Shown here: positions 6,101-64,000 of the stretch, piece by piece | Layout: every line of letters starts with the position of its first letter | Position numbering within the stretch: position 1 is the stretch's first letter | From: Nitrospirota bacterium | GTDB taxonomy: Bacteria > Nitrospirota > UBA9217 | Length of the DNA: 64,000 nucleotides | Direction of reading: 5' to 3' | Assembly: GCA_963749655.1 (NCBI GenBank) | Contig: CAVVOB010000026.1 | Span: 1 to 64,000, forward strand | Translations under genes and position numbers: made by a program | The notes under the pieces: generated by a model | Told to the model about the DNA's origin: nothing | Seen by the model: the letters and a program-made list of their open reading frames with translations, nothing else | The model's database searches: none

Positions 6101-6856
6101 TCACCGGAAGTTCTGCCACAGCAGTTTAACACTGACAGCGAGGACTACTGCGATGAACACCGGCCGGATGAAGCGGCTCCCCTTTTTGATGACCAGGCGG
6201 GAGCCGATGCGGGCGCCTGCGAACTGTCCCAGTCCCATGATGATGCCCTCGGGCAGCGAGACGAATCCTCCCGCGAAAAAGAAGGCAAGGGCTACAAGGT
6301 TGCTCGTAAAGTTCATCACCTTGGTGTAGGCAGTGGCGCGGGTCAGGTTGAAACCGAGGAAGAGGACGAAAACCATGGCCCAGAAGGTGCCGGTTGCGGG
6401 ACCGAAAAAACCGTCATAGAATCCGATCGCCAGGCCGAAGAGGAGGAAGAAGGGGTTTCTGCCCATTCGCTCACGCACATCCGCCATACCAAGACGGGGC
6501 GAGAAAAGCATGGTCAGGGCTATGACGATGAGCAGAACAGGAATCGCCCTGCGGAGAAAGGAAGGGTCGAGCGTCTGCACGGAGAGAGAACCGAGCGCGG
6601 CGCCCACGGCGGTCCATACAATGCCTGCGGCACAGTCCCGGAGGTTCACGGTGCCGGCGCGGGCAAAGTGGAGCATGGCGCTGCCCGAGCCGAAGGTGCC
6701 CTGGAGCTTGTTGGTGCCGAGCGCAGTCTGGGGCGGCATGCCCATGCCGAGAAGAACGGGAATGGTAATGAGTCCGCCGCCTCCGGCCATGGAATCAATG
6801 AGCCCCGCAACAAGACCGGCAGCGAACAGGAGCGGGAACTTCAGAAGAGGAATCAT
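6101..6856 (-). CDS. TSUP (TauE/SafE, YfcA-like) transporter
   Basis: DSMAGGGGLITIP, ALGTNKLQ, GFYDGFFGP, NFTSN. Confidence 0.9.
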   Translation of the reverse strand: MIPLLKFPLLFAAGLVAGLIDSMAGGGGLITIPVLLGMGMPPQTALGTNKLQGTFGSGSAMLHFARAGTVNLRDCAAGIVWTAVGAALGSLSVQTLDPSFLRRAIPVLLIVIALTMLFSPRLGMADVRERMGRNPFFLLFGLAIGFYDGFFGPATGTFWAMVFVLFLGFNLTRATAYTKVMNFTSNLVALAFFFAGGFVSLPEGIIMGLGQFAGARIGSRLVIKKGSRFIRPVFIAVVLAVSVKLLWQNFR

Positions 6857-8549: not shown

Positions 8550-9440
8550 ATGCCGGAGATTTGTCCCGTAGTCAACACGGAAAGATTGCTGCTTGCCACA
8601 GACGGTTCTGATTACAGCGAGGGCGCGATTCGGGAGGCCATCAGTCTTGCGAAGCAGTGTTCCAGCAAGCTTTCAGCAATATCGGTGATCGAAACGAATC
8701 CTGAATATGAGACGATCGCCCCGCAGCTGCTCGAACGATCGGAGAAGGCAGCCCGCGAGCACCTCGAGGCAGTGAAGGCCCGGGCGAAGAACGAGGGGGT
8801 CAACTGCGAGACCAGCATCCTGGAAGGCCAGGACTCCTATAATTATATTACCGACGAGGCTAAGAAATTCAAGGCATCGATGATCATCATGGGCAGGCGG
8901 GGAAGGACCGGCCTTAAGCGGCTGGCCATGGGGAGCACCACAGCGCGGGTCATCGGCCACGCGGCCTGCAACGTGCTGGTGGTCCCACGGTCGGCGCAGG
9001 TCGGCTTCAAGAACATCGTAGTTGCGACAGACGGCTCGCGGTATTCCGCAGCAGCCGCGTCGGAGGCTATCGGTGTAGCCAAGCGGAACAACAGCAAGCT
9101 CACGGTCGTCGCCGTGGTGCCTGCGGAGCTCGCAACGCCCACGGACATCGAATTCGCCATGCCGCAGCGGGAGATGCTCGCGGAAAAGGAGATGCACACG
9201 GCCGAGAAGAACGCCAAAGAGGTGAAGGAAGCCGCGCAGAAGGAAGGGGTGGTAGTACAAGCCTTTGTCATGACCGGAAAGCCGGCAGACGCCGTGGTCG
9301 AGATCGCCAGGGAAAAGAAGGCCGACTTCATCGTCCTCGGCAGCCACGGAAGAACGGGCCTCGAAAAGCTCCTCATGGGCAGCGTGGCGGAGCGGGTCAT
9401 CGTCCTTGCGGACTGCGCAGTGCTGGTCGTAAAAAAATAG
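8550..9440 (+). CDS. Tandem-domain universal stress protein
   Basis: Two USP repeats (ATDGS..GRRGRTG..MGS; ATDGS..GSHGRTG..MGSVAE). Confidence 0.95.
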   Translation: MPEICPVVNTERLLLATDGSDYSEGAIREAISLAKQCSSKLSAISVIETNPEYETIAPQLLERSEKAAREHLEAVKARAKNEGVNCETSILEGQDSYNYITDEAKKFKASMIIMGRRGRTGLKRLAMGSTTARVIGHAACNVLVVPRSAQVGFKNIVVATDGSRYSAAAASEAIGVAKRNNSKLTVVAVVPAELATPTDIEFAMPQREMLAEKEMHTAEKNAKEVKEAAQKEGVVVQAFVMTGKPADAVVEIAREKKADFIVLGSHGRTGLEKLLMGSVAERVIVLADCAVLVVKK

Positions 9441-9453
9441 AGCAAGCGTTAAT

Positions 9454-9566
9454 CAAGCTCCAAATGGCAAATAAGCATCAAGAACCGAGCAACAAATTCT
9501 AAACGTGTCTGTTGCACTTTGGGGATTGATGGTATTTGCGATTTGCTATTTGTTACTTGGAGCTTG
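9454..9566. repeat. Inverted heptamer-array element
   Basis: tggtatt-tgcgatt-tgctatt-tgttact-tggagct (9530-9564) with imperfect inverted arm caagctccaaatggcaaata (9454-9473). Confidence 0.7.
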
Positions 9567-9586
9567 TCACGGCTTTCTGTGATTGC

Positions 9587-10882
<1,296 letters not shown>

Positions 10883-10892
10883 CCATTCATAG

Positions 10893-10964
10893 CGCAACTT
10901 TAAATTGCACCAATAGCGGTCTGTTAGCCCCCATGTCCCCGTTGCCACGCCACATTTTGATGCA
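10893..10964. promoter_or_regulatory. Two NtrC-like enhancer sites
   Basis: 17-bp CGCAACTTTAAATTGCA (10893) and CGCCACATTTTGATGCA (10948) upstream of a sigma54 promoter. Confidence 0.5.
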
Positions 10965-11015
10965 CCATATTTTCCCATAGAATAAAATACAAAATAAAAA
11001 CAAGTAATTAAATAA

Positions 11016-11030
11016 TGGCACGCCTATTGT
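11016..11030 (+). promoter_or_regulatory. sigma54 (-24/-12) promoter
   Basis: TGGCAC-GCCTA-TTGT preceded by an AT-rich tract. Confidence 0.7.
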
Positions 11031-11062
11031 AATAACAAGGATTAAAATCCTGGAGGCTGCCA

Positions 11063-11209
11063 ATGGAAAAACTTATGAAAATGATCGAAGACGTCATGGT
11101 AGCAGTTACTTTTGCCGAAGCAGGAGAGTTTGACGAGGCTAACAAGATCGCCGGGAACGATGCGCCGCAGGACGAGAAGAGAACGGTTCCGGCTGCTGCG
11201 GGCAGGTAA
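11063..11209 (+). CDS. 48-aa peptide with VAVTFAEAGE motif (not in ORF track)
   Basis: MEKLMKMIEDVMVAVTFAEAGEFDEANKIAGNDAPQDEKRTVPAAAGR; GGAGG RBS; paralog at 62657-62785. Confidence 0.8.
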   Translation: MEKLMKMIEDVMVAVTFAEAGEFDEANKIAGNDAPQDEKRTVPAAAGR

Positions 11210-11274
11210 ACCGAGGAGAACCATTCTTTAGATAGGCCTGCCATTTTACCATCGACACCATGACAGTGGCGGCA

Positions 11275-11312
11275 CATTCGGGATTTTCACAGGGAAAGCC
11301 CCGAATTTTTTT
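11275..11312 (+). terminator. Intrinsic terminator after the peptide gene
   Basis: ATTCGGG..CCCGAAT stem followed by a T-run. Confidence 0.6.
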
Positions 11313-11353
11313 GTCCTTTAAAACTCATTATAACGACCTGAAGAAATAAACTT

Positions 11354-12097
11354 ATGTTGATAAACCATAAAACAGTTGATCGCGAAAGCCAGCAAAAGCT
11401 CTATGTGCAGATGTTCTCGATCATCAAGGACAAGATCGAGACGCACGAGTGGCCCGTGGGTTCTCAAATCCCGACGGAAGACGAGTTGTGCAGAACCTAC
11501 GACATAAGCAAGGCGACGGTGCGCATGGCCATCGCCGATCTCGTGAGAAACGGCTATCTCAAAAAGCTGCAGGGCAAGGGCACGTTCGTCATGCATGCCA
11601 TGCCGGACCTCGGCATCACCATGAAGACGCGCCTGACCGAGGACATGTTCGGGGAGGGGGTGAGCGCACGCAAGGAGATACTGGTGAAAGGGTTTAAGGC
11701 TCCGCCGGAGGACGTGAGGACCTATTTGCAGAGCGACGGTAACGTATTCTATATTCTCTGCAAACGCGTCGTCAACGGCGAGCCGGCGTACCTTGAGGAA
11801 TCGTTTATACCGCCGGAGACCGTGTCGGATATCGAAGAGATGGAGTTCTGCCAGTCCTCTTTTTACGAGTTAATACAGCAAAAGGCAGCAAGAAAGATCT
11901 TCAAGGTCGTCCAGATGATCGAGATCGTCGAGATGAACGGCGACACGGCCTCGATCCTTAAGATCGGGAACGGCACGCCGATGCTGCTGCTGCACCGGCT
12001 GCTCGTGGCCGCCGACGGCAGTCCCATCGCCTATACCCGGCTGATGGGAGGCGGCAGAAAGTACAAGCTGCGAACGGAATTGGTCCAGATCGCATAG
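11354..12097 (+). CDS. GntR-family (HutC/UTRA) transcriptional regulator
   Basis: IPTEDELC..ISKATVRMA..QGKGTFV wHTH plus UTRA-like C-terminus. Confidence 0.9.
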   Translation: MLINHKTVDRESQQKLYVQMFSIIKDKIETHEWPVGSQIPTEDELCRTYDISKATVRMAIADLVRNGYLKKLQGKGTFVMHAMPDLGITMKTRLTEDMFGEGVSARKEILVKGFKAPPEDVRTYLQSDGNVFYILCKRVVNGEPAYLEESFIPPETVSDIEEMEFCQSSFYELIQQKAARKIFKVVQMIEIVEMNGDTASILKIGNGTPMLLLHRLLVAADGSPIAYTRLMGGGRKYKLRTELVQIA

Positions 12098-12135: not shown

Positions 12136-13383
12136 ATGAGTATCTTGAGAAACACCTATGAATATCTCAAGGCGGCGTCCGTCGCGCACGCCAAATGGGA
12201 CTATGAGGTCTCCATGAGCATTATTCATAACAGGAAGCGGATGTGGGTTCTTTTATTGTTGCTGTTGCCGATCGTGGCCGTATCGCTGGCGGACGCGGGC
12301 AACATGCTGGGCGGCAAGACGGCTTACGCCCCGGCGTTCTATTCCAATACGATTTTCGCCGTGTCGATCGCCATCGGCCTCGCAGCCGGGCTTATCACCG
12401 GATGCATCGGGGCGGGCGGCGGCTTCATCATCACCCCGGCGCTCATGGCCGCCGGCGTGAAGGGCATCCTGGCGGTCGGCACCGACGTGTTCCATATTTT
12501 CGCCAAGGCCATCATGGGCACCACGGTCCACAAGAAGCTCGGCAACGTATCGACGAAACTGGCAATCGCCTTCCTCGTCGGGTCCGGTGGAGGGACGTTC
12601 ATCGGCGGCTCCATCAACAGGTTCCTCTATGACAAGGACCCGATCCTGTCCGAGGCCTTCATCAGCCTGGTTTATGCCATTCTCCTCGGCTTCCTCGGCG
12701 TTTACGCGCTGATGGATTTCTTGAAGTCCCGCAAGGGTGCGAGCGGCAGCGACGCGCACGGCGGGCCATCCAGCACCACAGAGTTCGCGCTCAAGCTCCA
12801 GAAGATGAACATCCCGCCCATGATCACCTTTGATGAGGACTATGTTGCAGGCGGCAAGAAGATCTCGGGCGTGTTCGTGGCAATGGGCGGCATGATCGTC
12901 GGCATCCTCGCAGCCATCATGGGCGTGGGCGGCGGCTTCGTCACCTTCCCCATGTTCGTGTACACCTTCGGCGTTTCCACGGCCACGACCGTCGGCACCG
13001 ACATTCTCCAGATCATCTTTACCGCAGGTCTCGCTTCCATCGCCCAGTACGCCATCTACGGCTACGTGTTCTACACCCTGGCCATGGGCATGCTGATCGG
13101 CTCGCTCATCGGCATCCAGGTCGGCGCGCTCACGACGAAAGTGGTGAAAGGCATTCACATTCGCGGATTCTACGCCGTGTCCATCATCGCCGGATTCATC
13201 AACCGCGCTGCGACGCTGCCCAAGAAGATGGTGGAGCTCGAGATGATCAACATGTCCAAGGCCAGCATCAATGCCATTGAAATCGTCGGCAACTTCGTTT
13301 TCTGGATCGTGGTCGCCGTTTTCGGCATCTGGATCTTCAGCAAGTTCTTCGCCAATATAAAAACGCTCAGAGAGGAGGCATAG
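12136..13383 (+). CDS. TSUP (TauE/SafE) transporter, long form
   Basis: GCIGAGGGFIITP/AVGTD and IMGVGGGFVTFP/TVGTD repeats. Confidence 0.9.
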   Translation: MSILRNTYEYLKAASVAHAKWDYEVSMSIIHNRKRMWVLLLLLLPIVAVSLADAGNMLGGKTAYAPAFYSNTIFAVSIAIGLAAGLITGCIGAGGGFIITPALMAAGVKGILAVGTDVFHIFAKAIMGTTVHKKLGNVSTKLAIAFLVGSGGGTFIGGSINRFLYDKDPILSEAFISLVYAILLGFLGVYALMDFLKSRKGASGSDAHGGPSSTTEFALKLQKMNIPPMITFDEDYVAGGKKISGVFVAMGGMIVGILAAIMGVGGGFVTFPMFVYTFGVSTATTVGTDILQIIFTAGLASIAQYAIYGYVFYTLAMGMLIGSLIGIQVGALTTKVVKGIHIRGFYAVSIIAGFINRAATLPKKMVELEMINMSKASINAIEIVGNFVFWIVVAVFGIWIFSKFFANIKTLREEA

Positions 13384-13385
13384 CC

Positions 13386-14101
13386 ATGATCGTAAAGAAT
13401 AAACAACCATTTTCCATCGGAGTTATTCTGGCGCTGACGTTCTTCTGCGTTCTTGCACTGATCTTCTCTCCCATTTTCGGAGACGGCAGGAACGGGCTCA
13501 CGTTCTCCGACGACATGTTCAACAAGCTTTCCAAGGGATCGTCCTACTTCATTCCCAAGGTGGCCAAAAACAATGAAAAATTCAAGGGCACGGAGGTTGC
13601 GCTCGTGATCAAACTCGACAAACCGGAGCAGATGAACCCCCTGGCACTGAAGCTGCTTGCAACCGCGGGAGCATCGGCGCAGACAGCCAGCCCGGAGATC
13701 AAGATCACGGGCAACCTCGGGAACGTTATGAATCAGGTGCTGATCGATGCCGACGACATGTTCAAGAATGACGGCAAGCGGTCGCGGACCGGTACGGCAT
13801 CGATGAGAAGGAAGTCATGGCGTCCTGGTGGAACATGCTCAAGGTCATGGACAAGGAGCTCAAGAAGCAGGGCAAGATCGGCGAAGCGAAGATCGTCTCG
13901 GACGTCATGAAGAAGGCCGTCGAGCCGGCATACAATTATTACAAGGTCGAGGCCCAACAGGTCGCGGAGAAGGCGGGCCTGATGAGCGGTCTCCTCGTGT
14001 TCTACGTTGTTTACACCATGTGGTGGGGCTTCGCCATCTTCTACATGTTCGACGGAATCGGCCTCACCATGAAGAAGGCCAAAGTGAAAAAAGAGGTCTA
14101 G
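13386..14101 (+). CDS. TSUP-associated membrane protein (one frameshift near 13780)
   Basis: ORFs 13386 and 13817 join into one protein with N- and C-terminal TM segments. Confidence 0.75.
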
Positions 14102-14109
14102 GAGGGCAG

Positions 14110-14556
14110 ATGAAAGTCCTGGTGCCGGTGGACGGATCAAAGCATTCGGCAGAGAGCATCAAGGTGGCATCGTACTACGCTCAGGAAGAAGAATGCGTCC
14201 AGCTCTACCTCATGACGGTCATCCCGTCAGTGTCGGACATCGACCTCGAATTGTCCGCCTCGGAGCGGGACCGGATTCTGGAAAGCATGAAAAAAAGGGG
14301 CGAGGAGCTGCTCGCGCGGTCGTCGGACCTGATGAAGTCCTGCGGCGTGGAGCACGTGAACACCGTGCTTGCCACCGCGCCCTCGCCGGCGCAGGAGATC
14401 GTCTTCTTTGCCGAGAAGGAAAAAATCAACCTCATTGTCATCGGCAGCAGGGGGCGGCACGCAAACCACCGGTTCCAGATCGGGAGCGTTGCCGCCAACG
14501 TTGTCGGCCACAGCCCCTGCTGCGTCTATGTCGTAAAAGAACCGTGCTGGGCATAG
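14110..14556 (+). CDS. Universal stress protein
   Basis: MKVLVPVDGS..GSRG..IGSVA..SPCCV; GGAGGG RBS. Confidence 0.9.
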   Translation: MKVLVPVDGSKHSAESIKVASYYAQEEECVQLYLMTVIPSVSDIDLELSASERDRILESMKKRGEELLARSSDLMKSCGVEHVNTVLATAPSPAQEIVFFAEKEKINLIVIGSRGRHANHRFQIGSVAANVVGHSPCCVYVVKEPCWA

Positions 14557-14637: not shown

Positions 14638-16296
14638 ATGAAGATACGGGATAAATTGTTCCTCAGCTTCGGCCTGTATATCCTCCTGGCCGTGATCCTC
14701 GGTTTTTTTTCCTACAAGGAACTCCGGACCATCGGCACCCGGCTGGTCCTCGTGGAGACGGCCGATGATATCACCAACACGATCCTCGAGGTCCGGCGGT
14801 ACGAAAAGAACTTTCTCCTCTTCAGGGACCGCGCGAGCTTCGACGAACTGCAGAAATATCTGAACACGCTCAAGAAGCACATCGACGATATCCGGTCGGA
14901 GATCATCAGCGAGATCGGCGAGGACAACGCCGTCATGATGAAGACGGCGATCGCGGAGTATGAGGGCCTGATCCGCATCATCGCCGACAACTTCGAGTCA
15001 CAGCAGGAGCTGGAGAGCCAGATCAGGACAAAGGGACGCGCAGCGGAGCGCTCGCGCGCACGGAGCTCCAGGCCTTTCTCGTCCTGAGGCGGTACGAGAA
15101 GAACATGATGCTGTACCGGTCTTCCGCGTCCTTGCAGTCTTTAAGCGCACCTTTGACGGATCAGGCCTTGCCGCCCATCCTGATGTCCGCGGATACCAGT
15201 GCTTGTCGCCAAGCTGTACGCGCTCTTCGACGCGGAAAAGAGCTCGATCGAGAAGATGCGCTTGACGGCGCGTAATATCCAGTCCTTTACCCAGAACCTC
15301 TCGAAGAAGGAGCGGTCGAACGTCGCCACGACGATCAAGATGTCCATCAACCTGCAGGTGATCACCCTGGTGATCGTGGTAATCGTCGGAACGATCATCA
15401 ATTTCGAGCTCTCGTCGAGCATTGCAGCGCCGATCCGGGACCTTGAGCGGATCACCAAGAAGATCACGCGGGGGGATTTCTCGGAGAGCATCACGGTCAC
15501 GGGGCATGACGAAATCTCGTCCCTGGCCGGGTCCTTCAATCAGATGGAGGAGAAGCTGGACCACGCCATGACCTCCCTTGAGGAGATCATCAAGAAGCTT
15601 CAGGAAAAACAGGAGCAGCTCGTGGAGGCCGAGAAGCTGGCGGCCGTTGGAAAACTCGCTGCGGGCATCGCCCACGAGATCAACAATCCGCTCACGTCGG
15701 TGCTGACGTTTTCGAACCTGATGCTGGAGCAGTGTCCCGCCAGCGATCCCCGGCATGAGAAGCTGAAGCTCATGGCGAGGGAGACCGAGCGGGCGCGGAA
15801 CATCGTGCGCCAGCTCCTGAACTTCGGCCGCGAGACCGTGATCAAGCCGGTCCGGATCAACATCAACCAGCCGGTCACCGAGATTGTCGAGTCCCTGTCC
15901 GCCCAGGAGGCGTTCAAGGGAATCGACGTTTCCGTGCGGCTTGCCGAGGGACTGCCCGACGTGTCCGCAGATCCGGCGCAGATCGGCCAGGTCGTCCTCA
16001 ATATGATGCTGAACGCCATCCATGCCATCACGCCCCCGGGCAGGATCGAAGTCCTTACCCGCATGGGCGGAAATGACGTCGAAATCGTGTTCAGCGACAC
16101 GGGCAGGGGCATTCCGGAGAACCATCTGCACAAGATCTTCGACCCCTTCTTCACGACCAAGGACGCCTTCAAGGGGACGGGGCTGGGGCTGGCCGTCAGC
16201 TACGGCATCATCAGGAAGCACGGCGGAACCATCGAGGTGGCGAGCGCCGAAGGCAAGGGGACGACATTTACCGTGAGGTTGCCGATCAATGGATAA
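14638..16296 (+). CDS. Membrane sensor histidine kinase (HAMP-HisKA-HATPase), frameshifted near 15050-15200
   Basis: TM, periplasmic repeat RRYEKN, HAMP, AHEINNPL, DTGRG, GTGLGL. Confidence 0.9.
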
Positions 16297-56005: not shown

Positions 56006-56755
56006 CTAGACTAACGCCAATTTCATCCCCGCCATGGCGAGCATGATGCCGAGCAATATTCGTAAGACCGGGCTGTTGAACTTCGTTGCCCCCAAGGTCG
56101 AGCCCAGGTATCCGCCAAGAACAACGGCAACGGACCAGAAGGCAATGTGCTCAGGGAACGCTCCGCCTTTGTGAATAAATCCCGCCAGGCCGGAGATCGA
56201 GTTCAGGAGAATGAATGCCGCGGCCACTGCCGCCGTTCTCCGAAGTCCCGCCCAATGCAGAATGATAAGGACCGGGCTCAGGAATATCCCGCCGCCGACG
56301 CCCGTGAGCCCGGACAGAAACCCGAGCCCTCCTCCAACTGCCAGCGATGCGCCGATCCCCGGAAACGTTGCCTTCTCGGGATCATCCGTGGAGACCTTGC
56401 TCCAGAGGAGAAGATGGAGCGCAGCAAACACCAGTGCTATGCCCACGAGTATTTTGTATATCGTCGTGTCCACGTGCATTCCACCGCCCAGGTACGCCAT
56501 AGGGACCGCGGCCAGGGCAAAAGGCCAGAACAGTCTCCATGAAAAATATCCCGCTTTGGCAAACCGAATGGTCGTGACCAGGGCCACGACGATATTCAGC
56601 GCAAGCGCGGTAGGTTTCATCACGGCCGGCGGAAACGAAAGAAGAGCCATCGTCGCCAAATAGCCTGACGCCCCCGCGTGCCCTACCGTGGAATACAGGA
56701 GCGCGATGAAAAAGAAATATACGCCTATAATTACGATGTCATGCATAACGATCAC
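56006..56755 (-). CDS. TSUP (TauE/SafE) transporter inside the nif operon
   Basis: YSTVGHAGASGY, GLTGVGGGIFLSP, FILLNS. Confidence 0.9.
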   Translation of the reverse strand: MIVMHDIVIIGVYFFFIALLYSTVGHAGASGYLATMALLSFPPAVMKPTALALNIVVALVTTIRFAKAGYFSWRLFWPFALAAVPMAYLGGGMHVDTTIYKILVGIALVFAALHLLLWSKVSTDDPEKATFPGIGASLAVGGGLGFLSGLTGVGGGIFLSPVLIILHWAGLRRTAAVAAAFILLNSISGLAGFIHKGGAFPEHIAFWSVAVVLGGYLGSTLGATKFNSPVLRILLGIMLAMAGMKLALV

Positions 56756-56804: not shown

Positions 56805-58310
56805 TTATCTAATCACATCAAAGCTCGCCGACCCCTCGGTCTTTCTGTCCAGTTCGTCAAGCACCGTGTTCACCAACATGGTCACCAGGTTCAGCGCGCC
56901 CTTGTACCCGATGATGGGCTGTCGGTGCAGATGGTGCCGGTCGAAGAGTGGGAACCCGATACGCACAAGCGGCGTTCCCGTGTCCTGCTTCAGGAACTTC
57001 GCATACGAGTTCCCGATCAGGACGTCAACGGGGTCGGTGAAGAGGAGCGAACGAAGATGCCACATGTCCTTGCCGATGTAAACCGTGCCGTTTGCGCCGA
57101 AGGGAGAAGACGCGAGCAGTTCCTTTGCCTCTGCCTCGAAATGTTTGTCCCCGTTCGTACAGACAACATGAATCGGCTCGCCGCCCATCTCCATGATGAG
57201 GCTCATCATGCCGAGCAGAATGTCCGGGTCTCCGACCAGGGCGAACCGCTTGCCGTGAACGTACGGATGGGAGTCCACCATGGCATCCACGACCCTGCCG
57301 CGCTCCGCTTCGATCTCGGTGGGGACCGGTTTTCCCGTGAGCCTGGACAGTTCTGCAAAGAAAGCGTCGGTGTTCCTGACGCCGATGGGAGAAAGCGTAA
57401 GCGTTTTCTGGCCCCATTCCTTTTGAATATAGTCCGTCGTCTTCACCGTGGAATACTTCTGGAGCGCCACCGTGGCCTGTGCGTTCACGCCGTCCATCGC
57501 ATCGGGAAGCGGCGTCCCTCCGGGATAGAGTTTGTACTCGCCCGTATTCGGTGAATCAAACGTGTCGCTCACGTCGGCAAACACCGTGGCCTCGATGCCC
57601 ATCAGCGACATGAGCCGCTTGATCTCGTGATAGTTCCCGGTGTAGGTATCGAAGCCCGGGATGATATTGATCTTCTTGTTCGATTCTCCTTTTTTGCCTG
57701 CCCAGAGCGCCTTCAGAATTCCCTTCATCATGTTGTCATAGCCGACGATATGGGAACCGACAAAGCTCGGGGTATTCGCGAATGGGATAAGAAGGTCCTG
57801 GGGCACGACGCCCTTTTCTTTTGCCGTCTTGATGTAGGCGTTCAAATCGTCGCCGATAACCTCGGCCATGCAGGTTGTGGAGACCGCGATCACCTTCGGC
57901 TTGTAGAGAGCATAGGCGTTCTCCAGACCCTCAAGCATGTTGTTCAGACCGCCGAATACGGCTGCATCTTCCGTCATCGAGGTCGAGATCGCCGCAAAGG
58001 GCTCCTTGAAGTGCCGGGAAAGATGGCTCCGGAAGTAGGCCACGCAGCCTTGCGCGCCCTGCACAAAAGGCATGGAGCCCTCGAACCCCGAGGCGCAGAA
58101 CACCGCGCCGAGGGGCTGGCATGCCTTTGCCGGATTGATCTTGATGTTCTCCCGCTTGAAATTGAGCTCCTTGTACTCCTCGGTCTTGGTCCACTCGGAG
58201 ACTTCTTTTATCTTTTCCGCCGGCCAACAGTTCTCGAATTCTTTTTTGCGTTCGAACTGCTCCTGATAATCCTGCTGCTTGAACAGCTCGCTATGGTCTC
58301 TGATTTTCAT
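56805..58310 (-). CDS. nifK: Nitrogenase MoFe protein beta chain
   Basis: NPAKACQPLG, GAQGC, STTCMAE, TPSFVGSH; start MKIRDH after GGAGG. Confidence 0.97.
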   Translation of the reverse strand: MKIRDHSELFKQQDYQEQFERKKEFENCWPAEKIKEVSEWTKTEEYKELNFKRENIKINPAKACQPLGAVFCASGFEGSMPFVQGAQGCVAYFRSHLSRHFKEPFAAISTSMTEDAAVFGGLNNMLEGLENAYALYKPKVIAVSTTCMAEVIGDDLNAYIKTAKEKGVVPQDLLIPFANTPSFVGSHIVGYDNMMKGILKALWAGKKGESNKKINIIPGFDTYTGNYHEIKRLMSLMGIEATVFADVSDTFDSPNTGEYKLYPGGTPLPDAMDGVNAQATVALQKYSTVKTTDYIQKEWGQKTLTLSPIGVRNTDAFFAELSRLTGKPVPTEIEAERGRVVDAMVDSHPYVHGKRFALVGDPDILLGMMSLIMEMGGEPIHVVCTNGDKHFEAEAKELLASSPFGANGTVYIGKDMWHLRSLLFTDPVDVLIGNSYAKFLKQDTGTPLVRIGFPLFDRHHLHRQPIIGYKGALNLVTMLVNTVLDELDRKTEGSASFDVIR

Positions 58311-58385
58311 GTATCCTCCGATAAATTCGCATGGTGCATAGCGCATAGTGCGACAAGCTTCTGTTTTCTGCTCTAGCCCTCTGCT

Positions 58386-59816
58386 CTATGCCCTATGCCG
58401 CCTTATCAACCCCCACGTCGGGCTGTTCACGGTCATGTCCATATCCCGCGCAAAGACCGGGAACCCGTCGAACCCATGATAAGGCCCCGAGTAGTCCCAC
58501 GAATGCATCTGCCGAAACGGCACGCCCAGCTTGTGGTAGGAGTACTTCTCCTTGATGCCCGAACCGACCATATCCGGTTTCAGTCTGCGCGTGAACTCCT
58601 CCAGTTCGTAGAGCGTGGCGTCGTCCATGATCACCGCGCCTTCTTTCATCTCGGGATAGGTGCGCTTATAATCGTCGCTGTGCCCGAACTCATAGCCGGA
58701 AGCGATAACTTCCATGCCAAGGTCCTCGTATGCGCCGATGGTATGCCGCGGCCGGAGGCCGCCGACATAGAGCATCACCTTTTTGCCTTCGAGCCTGGGT
58801 CGGTACTGCTCGACGACCTTGTCCATCAGGGGCTTGTACTTTGCGATCACGGCCTCCGCATTCTTTTTGATCTTCTCGTCGAACTTTTCCGCGATTTTCC
58901 TGATGCTGTCGATGGTCTTGGTCGGCCCGAAGAAATTGAACTCCATCCACGGGATGCCGTAGTTCTCCTCCATGTGGCGGCAGATGTAATTCATCGACCG
59001 GTAGCAATGGATCAGGTTCAGTTTGGCCTTGGTCGCGATCCCGATTTCGTTGATCGTGGAGTCGCCGGTGTACTGGGCGATCACTCTGAGGCCCATCTCC
59101 TCCAATATCTTGCGCGAGGCCCAGGCGTCGCCGCCGATGTTGTAGTCGCCGATGAGGTTCACGTCGTAGGGGGTGGTCTTTTCGAGCGTGCCCTTGCCGA
59201 GCACGTAGTCGCGGATCGTATCGTTCGCGATGTGGTGTCCCAGGGACTGGGACACTCCTCGGAACCCTTCGCACCGCACCGGCACGATGGGGAGATTGAT
59301 CTCCTTGGCCACGCGCTTCGATACGGCTTCAATGTCGTCGCCGATCAGTCCTACCGGACATTCAGAAAGAATGCCGATGCCGCGGCCGAGCGGGAAGAGC
59401 TGATGCAGCTCCTTGAGCGCCCCTTCGAGCCCTTTATCGCCTCCGTAGACGATGTTTTTTTCCTGGAAGTCGGTCGTGATGTGCATCGTGCCGAAGGTGT
59501 CGATTCCGGTCTGGCCGTTGTAGTAGTTCCTGCGTGACCACCACGAGTATTGGCCGCATCCGATCGGGCCGTGGCTGATCGTGATCTGGTCCTTCACCGG
59601 TCCCCAGACCACCCCCTTGGCGCCCGCGTAGGCGCAGCCGCGAACGGTCATAACGCCGGGCCGAGATTTTATGTTCGACTTCACCTGGCAGGAGCTGCAC
59701 TGGCCTGATGGATCGTTTGCCGCAAGGTGCTTGGCCCGGTCCTTTTTCGATTTTTCGGGGTAAGCCTCGAGGACCTCTTCAATCATCTTTTGGGTGTCTT
59801 TAATCGTAGTGCTCAT
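58386..59816 (-). CDS. nifD: Nitrogenase MoFe protein alpha chain
   Basis: RGCAYAG, HGPIGC, SECP, HCYRS, GGLRPRH, QMHSWDY. Confidence 0.98.
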
Positions 59817-59866
59817 TCTGTCTCCTTACCTCGTCGCGAATTATTCGGGACGGCTGCCGCAGCGTA

Positions 59867-59903
59867 ACTCTCGTCCCTCAGGGGAGGGGATTGGTGAGGG
59901 TGG
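59867..59903 (-). repeat. REP-like CCCTC..GAGGG hairpin between nifH and nifD
   Basis: Minus strand CCACCCTCACCAATCCCTCCCCTGAGGGACGAGAG. Confidence 0.5.
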
Positions 59904-59918
59904 TTGCCGTATTCGTCG

Positions 59919-60794
<876 letters not shown>

Positions 60795-60798
60795 CTAA

Positions 60799-60814
60799 AG
60801 CAATAGACATGCCA
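60799..60814 (-). promoter_or_regulatory. sigma54 promoter of the nif operon
   Basis: TGGCAT-GTCTA-TTGCT. Confidence 0.88.
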
Positions 60815-61587: not shown

Positions 61588-61603
61588 TGGCACGGCCCGT
61601 GCA
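61588..61603 (+). promoter_or_regulatory. sigma54 promoter of USP gene
   Basis: TGGCAC-GGCCC-GTGCA; upstream palindrome TGCAGT-N6-ACTGCA (61531-61548). Confidence 0.75.
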
Positions 61604-61660: not shown

Positions 61661-62091
61661 ATGAAGATCATGGTTGCTTATGACGGGACGTTGCAGGCAA
61701 AGGAAGCATTGGCATACGGCATGGACAAGGCGCGGGAAAAGGGCGGCGAAGTGGTGGCCCTGCACGTTTTCAACAGCCCGATGTTTTTCGATTATGACGC
61801 CACGCCCGGTGCACGGGACGAAGCGAAGGCGGAGTCAGCGCGCTTTATAGCCGAAGCAAAAGCCATCATCGCCGAGAAGAGCAAGGGCGTGAAGGCAAGC
61901 CTCTACAGCACTGAAGGCGATCCGGCGGAAGAGGTTGTCGGCTTCGCGAAAGCCGAGAAGGTGGACGTGCTGCTCTGCCCCCCAAATTCACGGAGATCAT
62001 CAACAAGTACCGGAAGGCTACAGCTGAATCGGAGCTGGCCGGCGAAGCTGCCAAACTCCAGGTTGCAGCCCTTTCAACGAAGACGATGTAG
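61661..62091 (+). CDS. Universal stress protein (frameshift in C-run ~61980)
   Basis: MKIMVAYDGT..EGDP..DVLLCPP; shifted frame ends STKTM*. Confidence 0.85.
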
Positions 62092-62200
62092 TCGGAACAC
62101 GCGGACAACGGAGGTGCGGGGCTCACGAAGAGACGTTACCATGCTTTCTTCGTGATCCTCGCTCTGTTTCAGGCATTCATTTCAGTGAACGGAGTACACC

Positions 62201-62416: not shown

Positions 62417-62629
62417 TCAGGGCTCGAACTTGGTCATATCGATCTCCCAGAAGCTATTCGATTTGTGATTGGTCCTTTTCTTTTTCAGCACGATGGGAGT
62501 CGTAAGGGTTTTCCAGATCCGCTGGAACTCCTCCTGGAAAAGGGGCATGTTTTCGGTCATGACTGCCGCCGCGAACAGGCTCAGGAAAAAGACGTTCTTG
62601 AGAACAAGTACGGACAGATCGGTATGCAT
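62417..62629 (-). CDS. Small hypothetical protein (70 aa)
   Basis: AGGAGG RBS; directly downstream of the AVTFAE peptide. Confidence 0.55.
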   Translation of the reverse strand: MHTDLSVLVLKNVFFLSLFAAAVMTENMPLFQEEFQRIWKTLTTPIVLKKKRTNHKSNSFWEIDMTKFEP

Positions 62630-62656: not shown

Positions 62657-62785
62657 TTACCGGGCTGCCGGCTGTTCACGGAGCTCGACACAGGCAGGGG
62701 ATATTTCCATTGCCTGGTATTCTCCGGACTCGGCAAAGGTTACTGCTACGAACAGGTTTTCGAGCATGGACAAAAGGTTTTTCAT
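62657..62785 (-). CDS. 42-aa peptide with VAVTFAESGE motif
   Basis: MKNLLSMLENLFVAVTFAESGEYQAMEISPACVELREQPAAR; GAGGAGG RBS; paralog of 11063-11209. Confidence 0.8.
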   Translation of the reverse strand: MKNLLSMLENLFVAVTFAESGEYQAMEISPACVELREQPAAR

Positions 62786-62840: not shown

Positions 62841-62856
62841 AGCAAGGGCCGTGCCG
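62841..62856 (-). promoter_or_regulatory. sigma54 promoter of the peptide gene
   Basis: CGGCAC-GGCCC-TTGCT. Confidence 0.8.
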
Positions 62857-62907
62857 ATATTTAAGCTATTGAATTTGTGCGATTAATTATATATAACCAT
62901 AGAATGG

Positions 62908-63001
62908 TGCACTTATTTGATGCATTATCTGACAGCAAAGAAGATGTAAGCTCAGGTAATTTAATTAAAACAGGCTACTGTTAGTGCACTTATATGTTGC
63001 A
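62908..63001. promoter_or_regulatory. Two NtrC-like enhancer sites
   Basis: TGCACTTATTTGATGCA (62908-62924) and TGCACTTATATGTTGCA (62985-63001), each one mismatch from TGCAC-N7-GTGCA. Confidence 0.65.
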
Positions 63002-63231: not shown

Positions 63232-64000
63232 ATGAAAATTCTCTCTCTCTATGATGGAACGTTACAATCCAAGGCAGCCATGCTGTATGGCTTAAGAAAG
63301 GCAAAAGAGCAGGCCGGCGAGTTGATCGTGCTCCAGGTATTCCAGACCAGCCTGTTCCTCGATTACGACGCCGGTCCGCGCGCCGAGGAGATCGCCCGCG
63401 CTGAAGCGGCCCGCCACCGCCGCGATGCGGAGGCCCTTATCAGCGAAGCCGGACGCCATGGAATACCTGTCCGCGTCCAGTCCGAAGAGGGGGATACGGA
63501 AGTAGAGGCGCTGCGCATCGCGCAGGCTGAGCGTGTCGACCTGATCCTTGCGTCCCCGCGCTATAAGGCGATCGCAAAAAAGGCTTCCTGTCCGGTCAGG
63601 ATCATACCGGGCGTCATCCTCCTTCCTGTGGACAATTCGGAAATGCTCCTTGCAGACCTGGACGAGATCGTCGGCGAGGCCAGGGCTTCCCAGTCAAAAG
63701 TCCTTTTGCTCGGCGTAGTGCCGATACATCTCTACAGCGCAGGAGAGAAGAAAGAAATTGAGGGTGTGATGAAGAGCACGAGCGCTGCAGTACGGAAACT
63801 CAAACATGCGCTGATTGAGCAGAAGATTGACACGTCCGAACTTGTCCGCTCAGGATACCCCGACGAGGAGATCCTGAAGGCGGCCGATGAGTTCGGCGTA
63901 TCGCTCATCATGCTGCCGGCAGGCGGCAAGACGCCGTCCGAGCTGACCAAGGCCGCCTCGATCCTGCTGGACGAACCCGAGCGGGTGCACCGGCCCCTGC
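63232..64000 (+). CDS. Tandem-domain universal stress protein (3'-partial)
   Basis: MKILSLYDGTLQSK (paralog of 61661), second domain LLPVDNS..SGYPDEEIL; AGGAGG RBS; runs off the window. Confidence 0.88.
   Translation, partial: MKILSLYDGTLQSKAAMLYGLRKAKEQAGELIVLQVFQTSLFLDYDAGPRAEEIARAEAARHRRDAEALISEAGRHGIPVRVQSEEGDTEVEALRIAQAERVDLILASPRYKAIAKKASCPVRIIPGVILLPVDNSEMLLADLDEIVGEARASQSKVLLLGVVPIHLYSAGEKKEIEGVMKSTSAAVRKLKHALIEQKIDTSELVRSGYPDEEILKAADEFGVSLIMLPAGGKTPSELTKAASILLDEPERVHRPL

Follow-up and report, generated by a model that had tools for sequence, protein, structure and literature searches.

What do two very small genes of a Nitrospirota bacterium encode, and on what would their products act? 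The question is raised by a 64,000-nucleotide stretch of contig CAVVOB010000026.1 (assembly GCA_963749655.1, positions 1 to 64,000 of the forward strand), hereafter the window, in which an open reading frame (ORF) of 48 codons, pep1, and one of 42 codons, pep2, each follow a sigma-54-type -24/-12 promoter and lie among genes for universal stress proteins (USPs). The original prediction, made from the letters of the window, had regarded the two as paralogs with one short protein-binding linear motif in common and had placed them in an undescribed regulatory system. As judged from the analysis described here, pep1 and pep2 are very probably genuine translated micropeptides, each essentially a single helix-turn-helix hairpin resembling the tetratricopeptide repeat (TPR), and they belong to an unnamed family of sigma-54-driven, single-repeat micropeptides that by sequence spans the Nitrospirota and the Desulfobacterota. 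The hairpin may serve as an adaptor that acts on modules made of USPs and TSUP permeases.

Two micropeptide genes and their sigma-54-type promoters

The products of pep1 and pep2 have in common the string MxxLxxMxExxxVAVTFAE(A/S)GE(F/Y), which includes an amphipathic N-terminal stretch, and they diverge after it. This likeness is above chance, with reciprocal tblastn matches between the two within their own genome (E 1e-3 to 3e-3) and a match of pep2 to a profile of pep1 homologs (E 6.6e-17); the claim that two ORFs with unrelated tails share VAVTFAE(A/S)GE and a following aromatic residue holds as it was made. Homologs of pep1 fall into 112 clusters (E <= 0.1), 84 of them of length 48-49 aa. 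In an alignment of 38 sequences the first 33 residues are nearly invariant, with E9, V13, A14, T16, F17, A18, E19, G21, E22 and A26 identical throughout, and the last 15 or so are variable. Purifying selection, which the original prediction had listed as a check, is evident in four 48-aa orthologs: dN/dS, the ratio of nonsynonymous to synonymous substitution rates, is 0.011-0.064 over codons 1-33 at a dS of 0.8-2.0, where synonymous sites are near saturation, and dN in the tail codons 34-48 is 0.23-0.97. A pep2-type gene is found by synteny in six relatives and keeps the N-terminal helix and the FAE-x-G turn. Neither peptide matches a Pfam family at E values up to 1 or any NCBIfam family, and a search of the ESM Atlas returned unnamed clusters only (0.86-0.89).

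These results bear on the most sceptical explanation of the locus, namely that the ORFs do not encode functional proteins and are either the decayed N-termini of longer genes, the outcome that the original prediction had itself named as fatal, or incidental to a small RNA. Frameshifted genes do occur nearby in the window, some longer proteins of relatives likewise start with the hairpin, and the unit from the pep1 promoter to its terminator resembles a small-RNA gene. Set against this are the narrow range of lengths in most clusters, the conserved reading frame, selection at the amino-acid level with synonymous sites saturated and a conserved ribosome-binding site (RBS), and the stretch behind pep1 contains no USP-like coding remnant, just a conserved terminator and the region of the gntR promoter. 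For pep1, a non-coding RNA or a decaying fragment is excluded because both its length and its amino acid sequence are conserved; for the peptides as a group we find the explanation barely credible.

The evidence from sequence is that pep1 and pep2 are sigma-54-type units, in which the promoter and a phased upstream site are conserved across two phyla. As a bare pattern, -24/-12 elements are no commoner in the window than chance allows (20, against 17.5 expected from shuffles), and weight therefore comes only from the position and the conservation of a promoter. Among 38 upstream regions from Nitrospirota the strict pattern was matched in 17, every one 5' of a micropeptide gene, and seven further first-gene micropeptides in the same regions have a near match to TGGCAC-N5, read by eye, with TTGA, ATGA or GTGC as the -12 element. 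A -24/-12 element also precedes 15 of 19 first micropeptide genes in a Desulfobacterota set (including three loci not titled Desulfobacterota), and the remaining four sit directly behind another hairpin gene. All four hairpin genes of the genome studied here, including two longer ones described below, bear such an element. In both pep1 and pep2 a GGAGG-type RBS lies 7-8 nt ahead of the ATG. The promoter and the strong RBS claimed for each ORF are thus present (TGGCACgcctaTTGT and CGGCACggcccTTGC), at positions conserved in relatives.

The upstream site adds to this picture. TGCAC[CT] is found 55-56 nt 5' of the GG of the -24 element in 17 of 19 pep1-type and pep2-type promoters, a rigid spacing although the distance from GG to ATG in the same promoters ranges over 44-88 nt. 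A further copy, often within GCAAC-N7-8-TGCACC, lies 5' of the GG by 111 nt (four pep1-type promoters) or 112 nt (one more) and, in four of six pep2-type promoters, by 133-134 nt. In a rough scan of the genome, which is 86.6% complete, site, promoter, RBS and ORF occurred together at pep1 and pep2 only. Because the two genes have the same phased activator-site architecture they look like a single enhancer-binding-protein regulon, and one NtrC-type activator probably drives both. The protein that binds TGCAC[CT] is most likely EBP1, the sigma-54 enhancer-binding protein encoded next to pep1, to judge from this adjacency; its Sigma54_activat and HTH_8 matches fit a sigma-54 activator, as does its layout, in which a short N-terminal part resembling a receiver is followed by an AAA+ domain, with GSFTGA as its loop, and by a helix-turn-helix of the Fis type.

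Downstream of pep1 a simple terminator scan found nothing, and a bulged 12-pair stem followed by U7 emerged only on folding. The terminator that had been assigned to pep1 is nevertheless well founded: in the 13 orthologous spacers between the peptide stop codon and gntR, a T-run of at least six is present in all, in 11 it follows a hairpin with a folding energy of -8.9 kcal/mol or lower, and all 13 have a CATTATAAC-like box (at most two changes) about 20 nt before the gntR start. The box may be a -10 element or a GntR operator. Since the terminator and this conserved box lie between pep1 and gntR, the gntR operon appears to be separately promoted, i.e. gntR and the genes after it would have a promoter or operator of their own. 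By the same reading of the sequence, pep1 is monocistronic, ends at a terminator of its own and lies between EBP1 and a gntR-TSUP-membrane protein-USP operon. Among sequencing runs, small shares of the sequence words were matched in five DNA metagenomes only, with no RNA run among the matches listed.

A TPR-like hairpin, free and within USP-fold proteins

The conserved element consists of a long amphipathic helix, a FAE-x-G-E turn and a short second helix. A profile of this hairpin matched 533 proteins (E <= 1e-3) among 1.84 billion representatives, and many of the 533 hold two to seven matched stretches, that is, tandem copies. They include mini-proteins of two or three repeats, proteins in which two to four repeats are fused to a USP-like domain, and long TPR proteins; the long matches pass the cut-offs of the Pfam models TPR_1, TPR_2 and TPR_12, and in one of them the aligned stretch coincides in part with a TPR_10 match. 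Small multi-repeat relatives have sub-threshold TPR matches only in Pfam. The signature positions of a TPR are 8, 11, 20, 24, 27 and 32. We take A14, F17, G21, F23 and A26 of the hairpin to fit TPR positions 8, 11, 15, 17 and 20, and I30 presumably fits position 24; positions 27 and 32 seem to find no counterpart, and the second helix is short. In an AlphaFold2 model of a 163-aa paralog of this genome (pLDDT 78.8, pTM 0.70) the motif is a helix at residues 43-58, a turn and a helix at 62-72, and a model of a three-repeat relative has three pairs of a long and a short helix with a 32-residue period. The overall arrangement of the latter is uncertain, and because its pTM is only 0.43 no solenoid is claimed. 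The products of pep1 and pep2 are one unit each and not a tandem array, compared with two to seven units in relatives.

These models suggest that the motif is a TPR-like single hairpin, neither a member of the TPR family nor a linear motif. On this point the original prediction needs to be revised: what it had taken for a short protein-binding linear motif appears to be a folded hairpin of the TPR kind, one that is found as a repeat. The label 'TPR-like' is preferred because neither pep1 nor pep2 matches a Pfam TPR model, pairwise comparison of the hairpin with the TPR by hhalign gives a weak probability of 26%, and a sequence search of the PDB with the hairpin profile yielded no match. Among the multi-repeat relatives, the proteins P0233, P0240, P0254, P0257 and others form a family of 120-150 aa with three hairpins and, at the C-terminus, a conserved LGLxGVxxxYG.

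Searches of this genome and of its relatives place the hairpin in three settings. Class A comprises the free peptides (42-70 aa). In class B, whose members have about 156-180 aa, the element is N-terminal and followed by a USP-like domain, and in class C (158-211 aa) it is inserted after the second strand of such a domain. The genome has exactly four hairpin proteins: pep1, pep2, the 163-aa paralog and a 201-aa class C protein with two tandem hairpins. In the 163-aa paralog the hairpin is inserted in a USP fold, and the top PDB matches in Foldseek are USPs (probability 1.0, TM 0.5-0.6), with TeaD (PDB 3hgm) among the best. Fused relatives score 16-20 bits against the Pfam Usp model, for which the cut-off is 24. 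The statement in the original prediction that a similar motif occurs in USP-like proteins is borne out by these class B and class C proteins.

The distribution of the hairpin also bears on the idea that the peptides are precursors, with a conserved leader and a variable core, of a signal or natural product that undergoes processing or export. The conserved N-terminus and hypervariable tail of pep1 would fit such a precursor, as would the conserved I-A-G-N junction and, in some lineages, tandem paralogous peptide genes with a protease and a permease nearby. The supposed leader, however, is a repeat, found elsewhere in tandem copies and within USP-fold proteins of the cytoplasm; the tails are hydrophilic without being rich in Cys, Ser or Thr, and in the type-2 peptides defined below the tail is conserved too. 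Moreover, no modifying enzyme, peptidase-ABC exporter or maturation family was found among the 8 + 150 + 97 neighbouring proteins scanned. We consider a precursor extremely unlikely.

Neighbourhoods and candidate partners

A context map, drawn by tblastn over 16 further genomic contexts and this genome together with Pfam, resolves three gene orders. Type 1, the pep1 arrangement, runs tandem USP, EBP1, peptide, GntR/UTRA regulator, TauE permease of a 415-aa clade, 237-aa membrane protein, USP, histidine kinase and second activator; EBP1 is directly 5' of the peptide in 11 of 12 loci, GntR directly 3' in 12 of 12, and the permease and the 237-aa protein are present in all 11 assessable loci. Type 2 runs peptide, class B protein, small membrane protein, TauE of a 362-aa clade and tandem USP, with this permease in 5/5 loci and a divergent gene for a REC-AAA-Lon protein (receiver, AAA+ and Lon domains) in 4/5. 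Type 3 runs class C protein, TauE of a 310-aa clade, Alph_Pro_TM and tandem USP (5/5, including the 163-aa gene of this genome). The 201-aa two-hairpin gene lies 5' of an ortholog of the 362-aa-clade permease (81-84% identity, tblastn) and holds the operon place that elsewhere is taken by a peptide and a class B gene. The hairpin profile matched 32 of 61 related genomes, 27 of 36 when the same family is considered, and a peptide adjoins a class B gene in 19 or more of these 32.

Within the genome itself, 11 of 17 USP-domain matches fall within 5 kb of the four hairpin genes; three TauE genes, from 14 TauE matches at about 12 loci, are directly 3' of hairpin genes; and an activator is directly 5' of three of the four, the genome having 28 activator matches in total. 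Both peptides do lie among USP genes (Table 1), and the neighbourhood check put forward with the original prediction returns a non-random linkage to USP, TSUP and NtrC-type activator genes.

The reading favoured here, to which we assign a probability of about 0.45, is that of a hairpin adaptor made under sigma-54 control that acts on USP/TSUP modules. Such action is proposed because the same hairpin occurs, once or twice, in the USP-fold first genes of paralogous sigma-54/TSUP/USP operons, and because in relatives a free peptide and a one-hairpin USP-fold protein replace the two-hairpin protein of this genome. On this view the NtrC-type activator would have the peptide as its diffusible output, and the peptide, a small module that binds proteins, would act on the island's USP/TSUP transport modules. 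The free hairpin could stack against a second hairpin or a helical surface, or dock via its conserved acidic tip (E19, E22, D24/E25), and would in this way tune the USP-type regulators or the permease. The partner and the mechanism in this scheme are held tentatively, at rather less than even odds. For pep2, a co-transcribed small membrane protein may be a candidate partner; it is about 70 aa long in relatives and detected by tblastn in five of them (E 2e-20 to 1e-6) and weakly in a sixth.

A bolder version of the same idea envisages a bacterial microProtein system, in which a free TPR-like repeat, as the dedicated output of the activator, would complete or compete with the identical repeat in USP-fold regulators, or dock on REC-AAA+ proteins with a Lon domain, and would so switch TSUP modules post-translationally. 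The pair of a peptide and a one-repeat protein would then be interchangeable with the two-repeat fusion, and the system would extend across the Nitrospirota and the Desulfobacterota. We consider this version somewhat unlikely.

Several observations weigh against the adaptor reading, in addition to the distance between the hairpin and canonical TPRs noted above. The island is gained and lost as a whole, and no partner can therefore be picked out by co-occurrence. Neither the 163-aa nor the 201-aa protein has a Pfam Usp match, and the nucleotide-binding motif of USPs, G-x2-G-x9-G(S/T), is not visible in the hairpin-fused USP-like domains on inspection of two alignments (A2, A6). These domains are degenerate, and their fusion to the hairpin is therefore no direct pointer to the canonical USPs beside pep1 and pep2. 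Two genomes (G006, G036) have a pep1 ortholog and no class C match, and a class C protein therefore cannot be an obligate partner of pep1. The pep2 subfamily is the less secure of the two: a word-based homolog search for pep2 gave one close homolog only (2 proteins found), and across the six relatives its second half, corresponding to the second helix, is poorly conserved. Finally, in a sample of 16 loci outside the Nitrospirota (Desulfobacula, Desulfobacterales, Syntrophobacterales and other records, with flanks of about 4 kb) TSUP is found in none, a response-regulator-Lon protease in 11 and an activator in three. The TSUP link is therefore limited to a lineage, and receiver-domain AAA+ proteins are the more general neighbours.

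This last point keeps alive a rival, in which the targets of the hairpin peptides are the receiver-domain AAA+ proteins encoded beside them, and the peptides are their adaptors, their anti-activators or substrates with a short life. EBP1 would be subject to feedback by pep1 and pep2, in the way that PspA acts on PspF, and related peptides would work with response-regulator-Lon or be degraded by it. The position of an activator directly 5' of nearly all pep1 genes and of most hairpin genes in this genome fits the proposal, although regulator and target are expected to be adjacent anyway and need no protein contact. EBP1 and the peptide have been lost together in one genome (G029). A gene for REC-AAA-Lon_C adjoins the peptide in 4/5 type-2 loci of Nitrospirota and 11/16 loci outside this phylum, both divergently and convergently, but no such gene stands beside any hairpin gene of the genome studied here. 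Type-2 peptides of Nitrospirota and those of Desulfobacterota (L088-L106, alignment A5) have basic tails and a conserved RPxLRx-like C-terminus, a possible signal for docking or degradation; the tails of pep1 and pep2 do not have this ending. The proposal also leaves the hairpin within USP-fold proteins unexplained. Activators without sensory domains in Desulfovibrio vulgaris may need partner proteins, according to the part of PMC4641369 available to us, which again would suit the proposal. On balance we consider it unlikely. As an observation in its own right, Lon proteases in which a response-regulator receiver replaces the N-domain stand beside peptide genes in two phyla (L043, L046, L047, L049; L091, L095-L097, L099-L101, L103-L106).

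The constant company of pep1 and gntR suggests another target. The peptide might antagonise the GntR/UTRA repressor encoded next to it, or assist it as a co-factor, and thereby link the sigma-54 signal to the gntR-TSUP operon with its separate promoter. In favour of this view, gntR follows pep1 in every one of the 12 type 1 loci, GntR orthologs (>= 53% identity) occur in 15 of 61 genomes with a pep1-type gene just upstream in 14, and the conserved CATTATAAC box lies between terminator and gntR. The fifteenth ortholog has no peptide: at this locus (L108, G029:C100) a truncated tandem-USP gene abuts gntR, and EBP1 and the peptide are both missing. GntR is, furthermore, confined to one operon type, hairpin proteins precede TSUP operons without it, and pep2 has no GntR neighbour. 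To our knowledge no regulator with a UTRA domain has a peptide ligand. We rate this alternative as very unlikely and continue to favour an adaptor for USP/TSUP modules.

Table 1. Coordinates of the two micropeptide genes, their predicted signals and their neighbours in the window
Feature	Position	Strand	Remarks
Tandem two-domain USP	8550-9440	+	Pfam Usp 4e-67, two stretches; first gene of the island; 5' of the activator in 10/12 pep1-type loci
EBP1, sigma-54 enhancer-binding protein	9536-10882	+	Sigma54_activat 3.4e-68, HTH_8, weak Response_reg; probable start ~9587
Distal upstream activator site of pep1, GCAAC-N7-TGCACC	10894-10911	+	Read from sequence
Proximal upstream activator site of pep1, TGCACC	10961-10966	+	56 nt 5' of the -24 GG
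pep1 -24/-12 promoter, TGGCACgcctaTTGT	11016-11030	+	TGGCAC-N5-TTGT; conserved 5' of orthologs
pep1 RBS, GGAGG	11052-11056	+	Found before nearly all orthologs
pep1	11063-11209	+	48 aa; hairpin at residues ~2-33, tail variable
pep1 intrinsic terminator	11276-11313	+	From folding; bulged 12-pair stem at ~11276-11306, then U7
CATTATAAC box	11326-11334	+	~20 nt 5' of gntR; candidate -10 element or GntR operator
GntR/UTRA (HutC-type) regulator	11354-12097	+	Pfam
TSUP/TauE permease, 415-aa clade	12136-13383	+	Pfam TauE 3e-36
Membrane protein without family	13386-14101	+	237 aa in relatives; frameshift-split here
Single-domain USP	14110-14556	+	Pfam Usp; start set by alignment
USP, convergent with the pep2 operon	61661-62155	+	Pfam Usp 8.7e-14
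Small membrane protein, 70 aa, co-transcribed with pep2	62417-62629	-	C-terminus FWEIDMTKFEP, strongly conserved; no Pfam or NCBIfam family
pep2	62657-62785	-	42 aa; helix A and FAESG turn kept, second helix poorly kept in the pep2 subfamily
pep2 -24/-12 promoter, CGGCACggcccTTGC	62842-62856	-	CGGCAC-N5-TTGC; kept in 5/6 relatives' upstream regions
Proximal upstream site of pep2, TGCACC	62906-62911	-	56 nt 5' of the -24 GG
Distal upstream site of pep2, GCAAC-N7-TGCACT	62983-63000	-	TGCAC[CT] at 133-134 nt in 4/6 pep2-type promoters
Two-domain USP, divergent from pep2	63232-64000	+	Pfam Usp 2.2e-20, two stretches; runs off the window

Some features of the island call for comment. The ortholog of the 237-aa membrane protein (13386-14101) has residues 1-131 in one frame and 144-237 in another, the result of an assembly error or a pseudogene. 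A HAMP/HisKA/HATPase kinase, 494-568 aa long in relatives, is read at 14638-16296 as two ORFs of 149 and 365 aa, possibly owing to a frameshift. In the USP gene at 61661-62155 the Usp model is matched over positions 4-110 only and the last ~55 residues look out of frame; relatives carry a 140-aa USP at this position. About 60 nt before this gene is a -24/-12-like element, GGCACGGCCCGTGC (61589-61602, + strand), where no TGCACC site was seen. The pep1 and pep2 loci are only about 9 kb apart in relatives, and in the window a nifH, nifD, nifK cluster (56805-60761, - strand) lies between them, with another -24/-12-like element, GGCATGTCTATTGC (60800-60813), just 5' of nifH. Two more short TSUP/TauE genes are found in the window at 6122-6829 and 56006-56755, both on the - strand.

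Relation to known systems

Sigma-54 control of TSUP permease operons is on record in a sulfate reducer. In Desulfovibrio vulgaris nine sigma-54 operons encode TSUP or PSE transporters, and the activator DVU2956 bound upstream of DVU2957-2964, as stated in the portion of PMC4641369 available to us; the locus is mentioned also in the corresponding portion of PMC8359166, and TSUP proteins are described as abundant and uncharacterised in sulfate reducers in that of PMC5840216. A hairpin peptide is not mentioned in the available portions of these three papers, supplements aside. A literature search on TauE, universal stress protein and sigma-54 together returned only an unrelated result, and the matches listed for single TPR motifs were eukaryotic or unrelated cases. 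The motif strings of pep1 and pep2 are absent from the literature searched, in agreement with the view that the system is undescribed.

Small proteins of unknown function are a large blind spot of genome annotation, and pep1 and pep2 present a clean case among them, with strong selection, a defined promoter and defined candidate partners. They offer a testable handle on the targets of many sigma-54 activators in sulfur-cycling anaerobes, on the regulation of the abundant uncharacterised TSUP permeases and their USP neighbours, and on the single helical repeat as a trans-acting regulator in bacteria. The hairpin family, for which Pfam and NCBIfam have no model, can be defined from the alignments made here.

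Like TPRs, the hairpin is a helix-turn-helix unit of about 32-35 residues, its family includes tandem arrays and its profile matches bona fide TPR proteins. Unlike them, it stands alone as a protein of 42-58 aa, its second helix is short and it has the additional invariant residues T16, E19 and E22. TeaD, of the TeaABC TRAP transporter (PDB 3hgm), is similarly a USP-fold protein encoded in a transporter operon and a likely regulator; however, neither TeaD nor the D. vulgaris TSUP operons have been described with a hairpin micropeptide. With PspA-PspF and HrpV-HrpS the peptides share their place in the first gene of a sigma-54 unit beside an activator, a helical protein and a possible feedback on an AAA+ protein, but pep1 and pep2 are unrelated to these (no Pfam match) and far smaller, and EBP1 has a receiver-like N-terminus. 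A further parallel exists with the Qrr small RNAs beside luxO, where a short, terminator-bounded sigma-54 transcript next to an NtrC-type activator is its main output; the product of pep1, by contrast, is a protein under selection at the amino-acid level. Lastly, the plant and animal microProteins, such as LITTLE ZIPPER and the Id proteins, are tiny paralogs of an interaction module of larger proteins, encoded in the same regulatory setting, and the peptides could likewise pair with such a module or compete for it. The hairpin peptides do correspond to such proteins in being small and paralogous to a module of larger proteins. They differ in that they are bacterial, driven by sigma-54 and TPR-like instead of zipper or helix-loop-helix proteins, and in their case pairing is putative.

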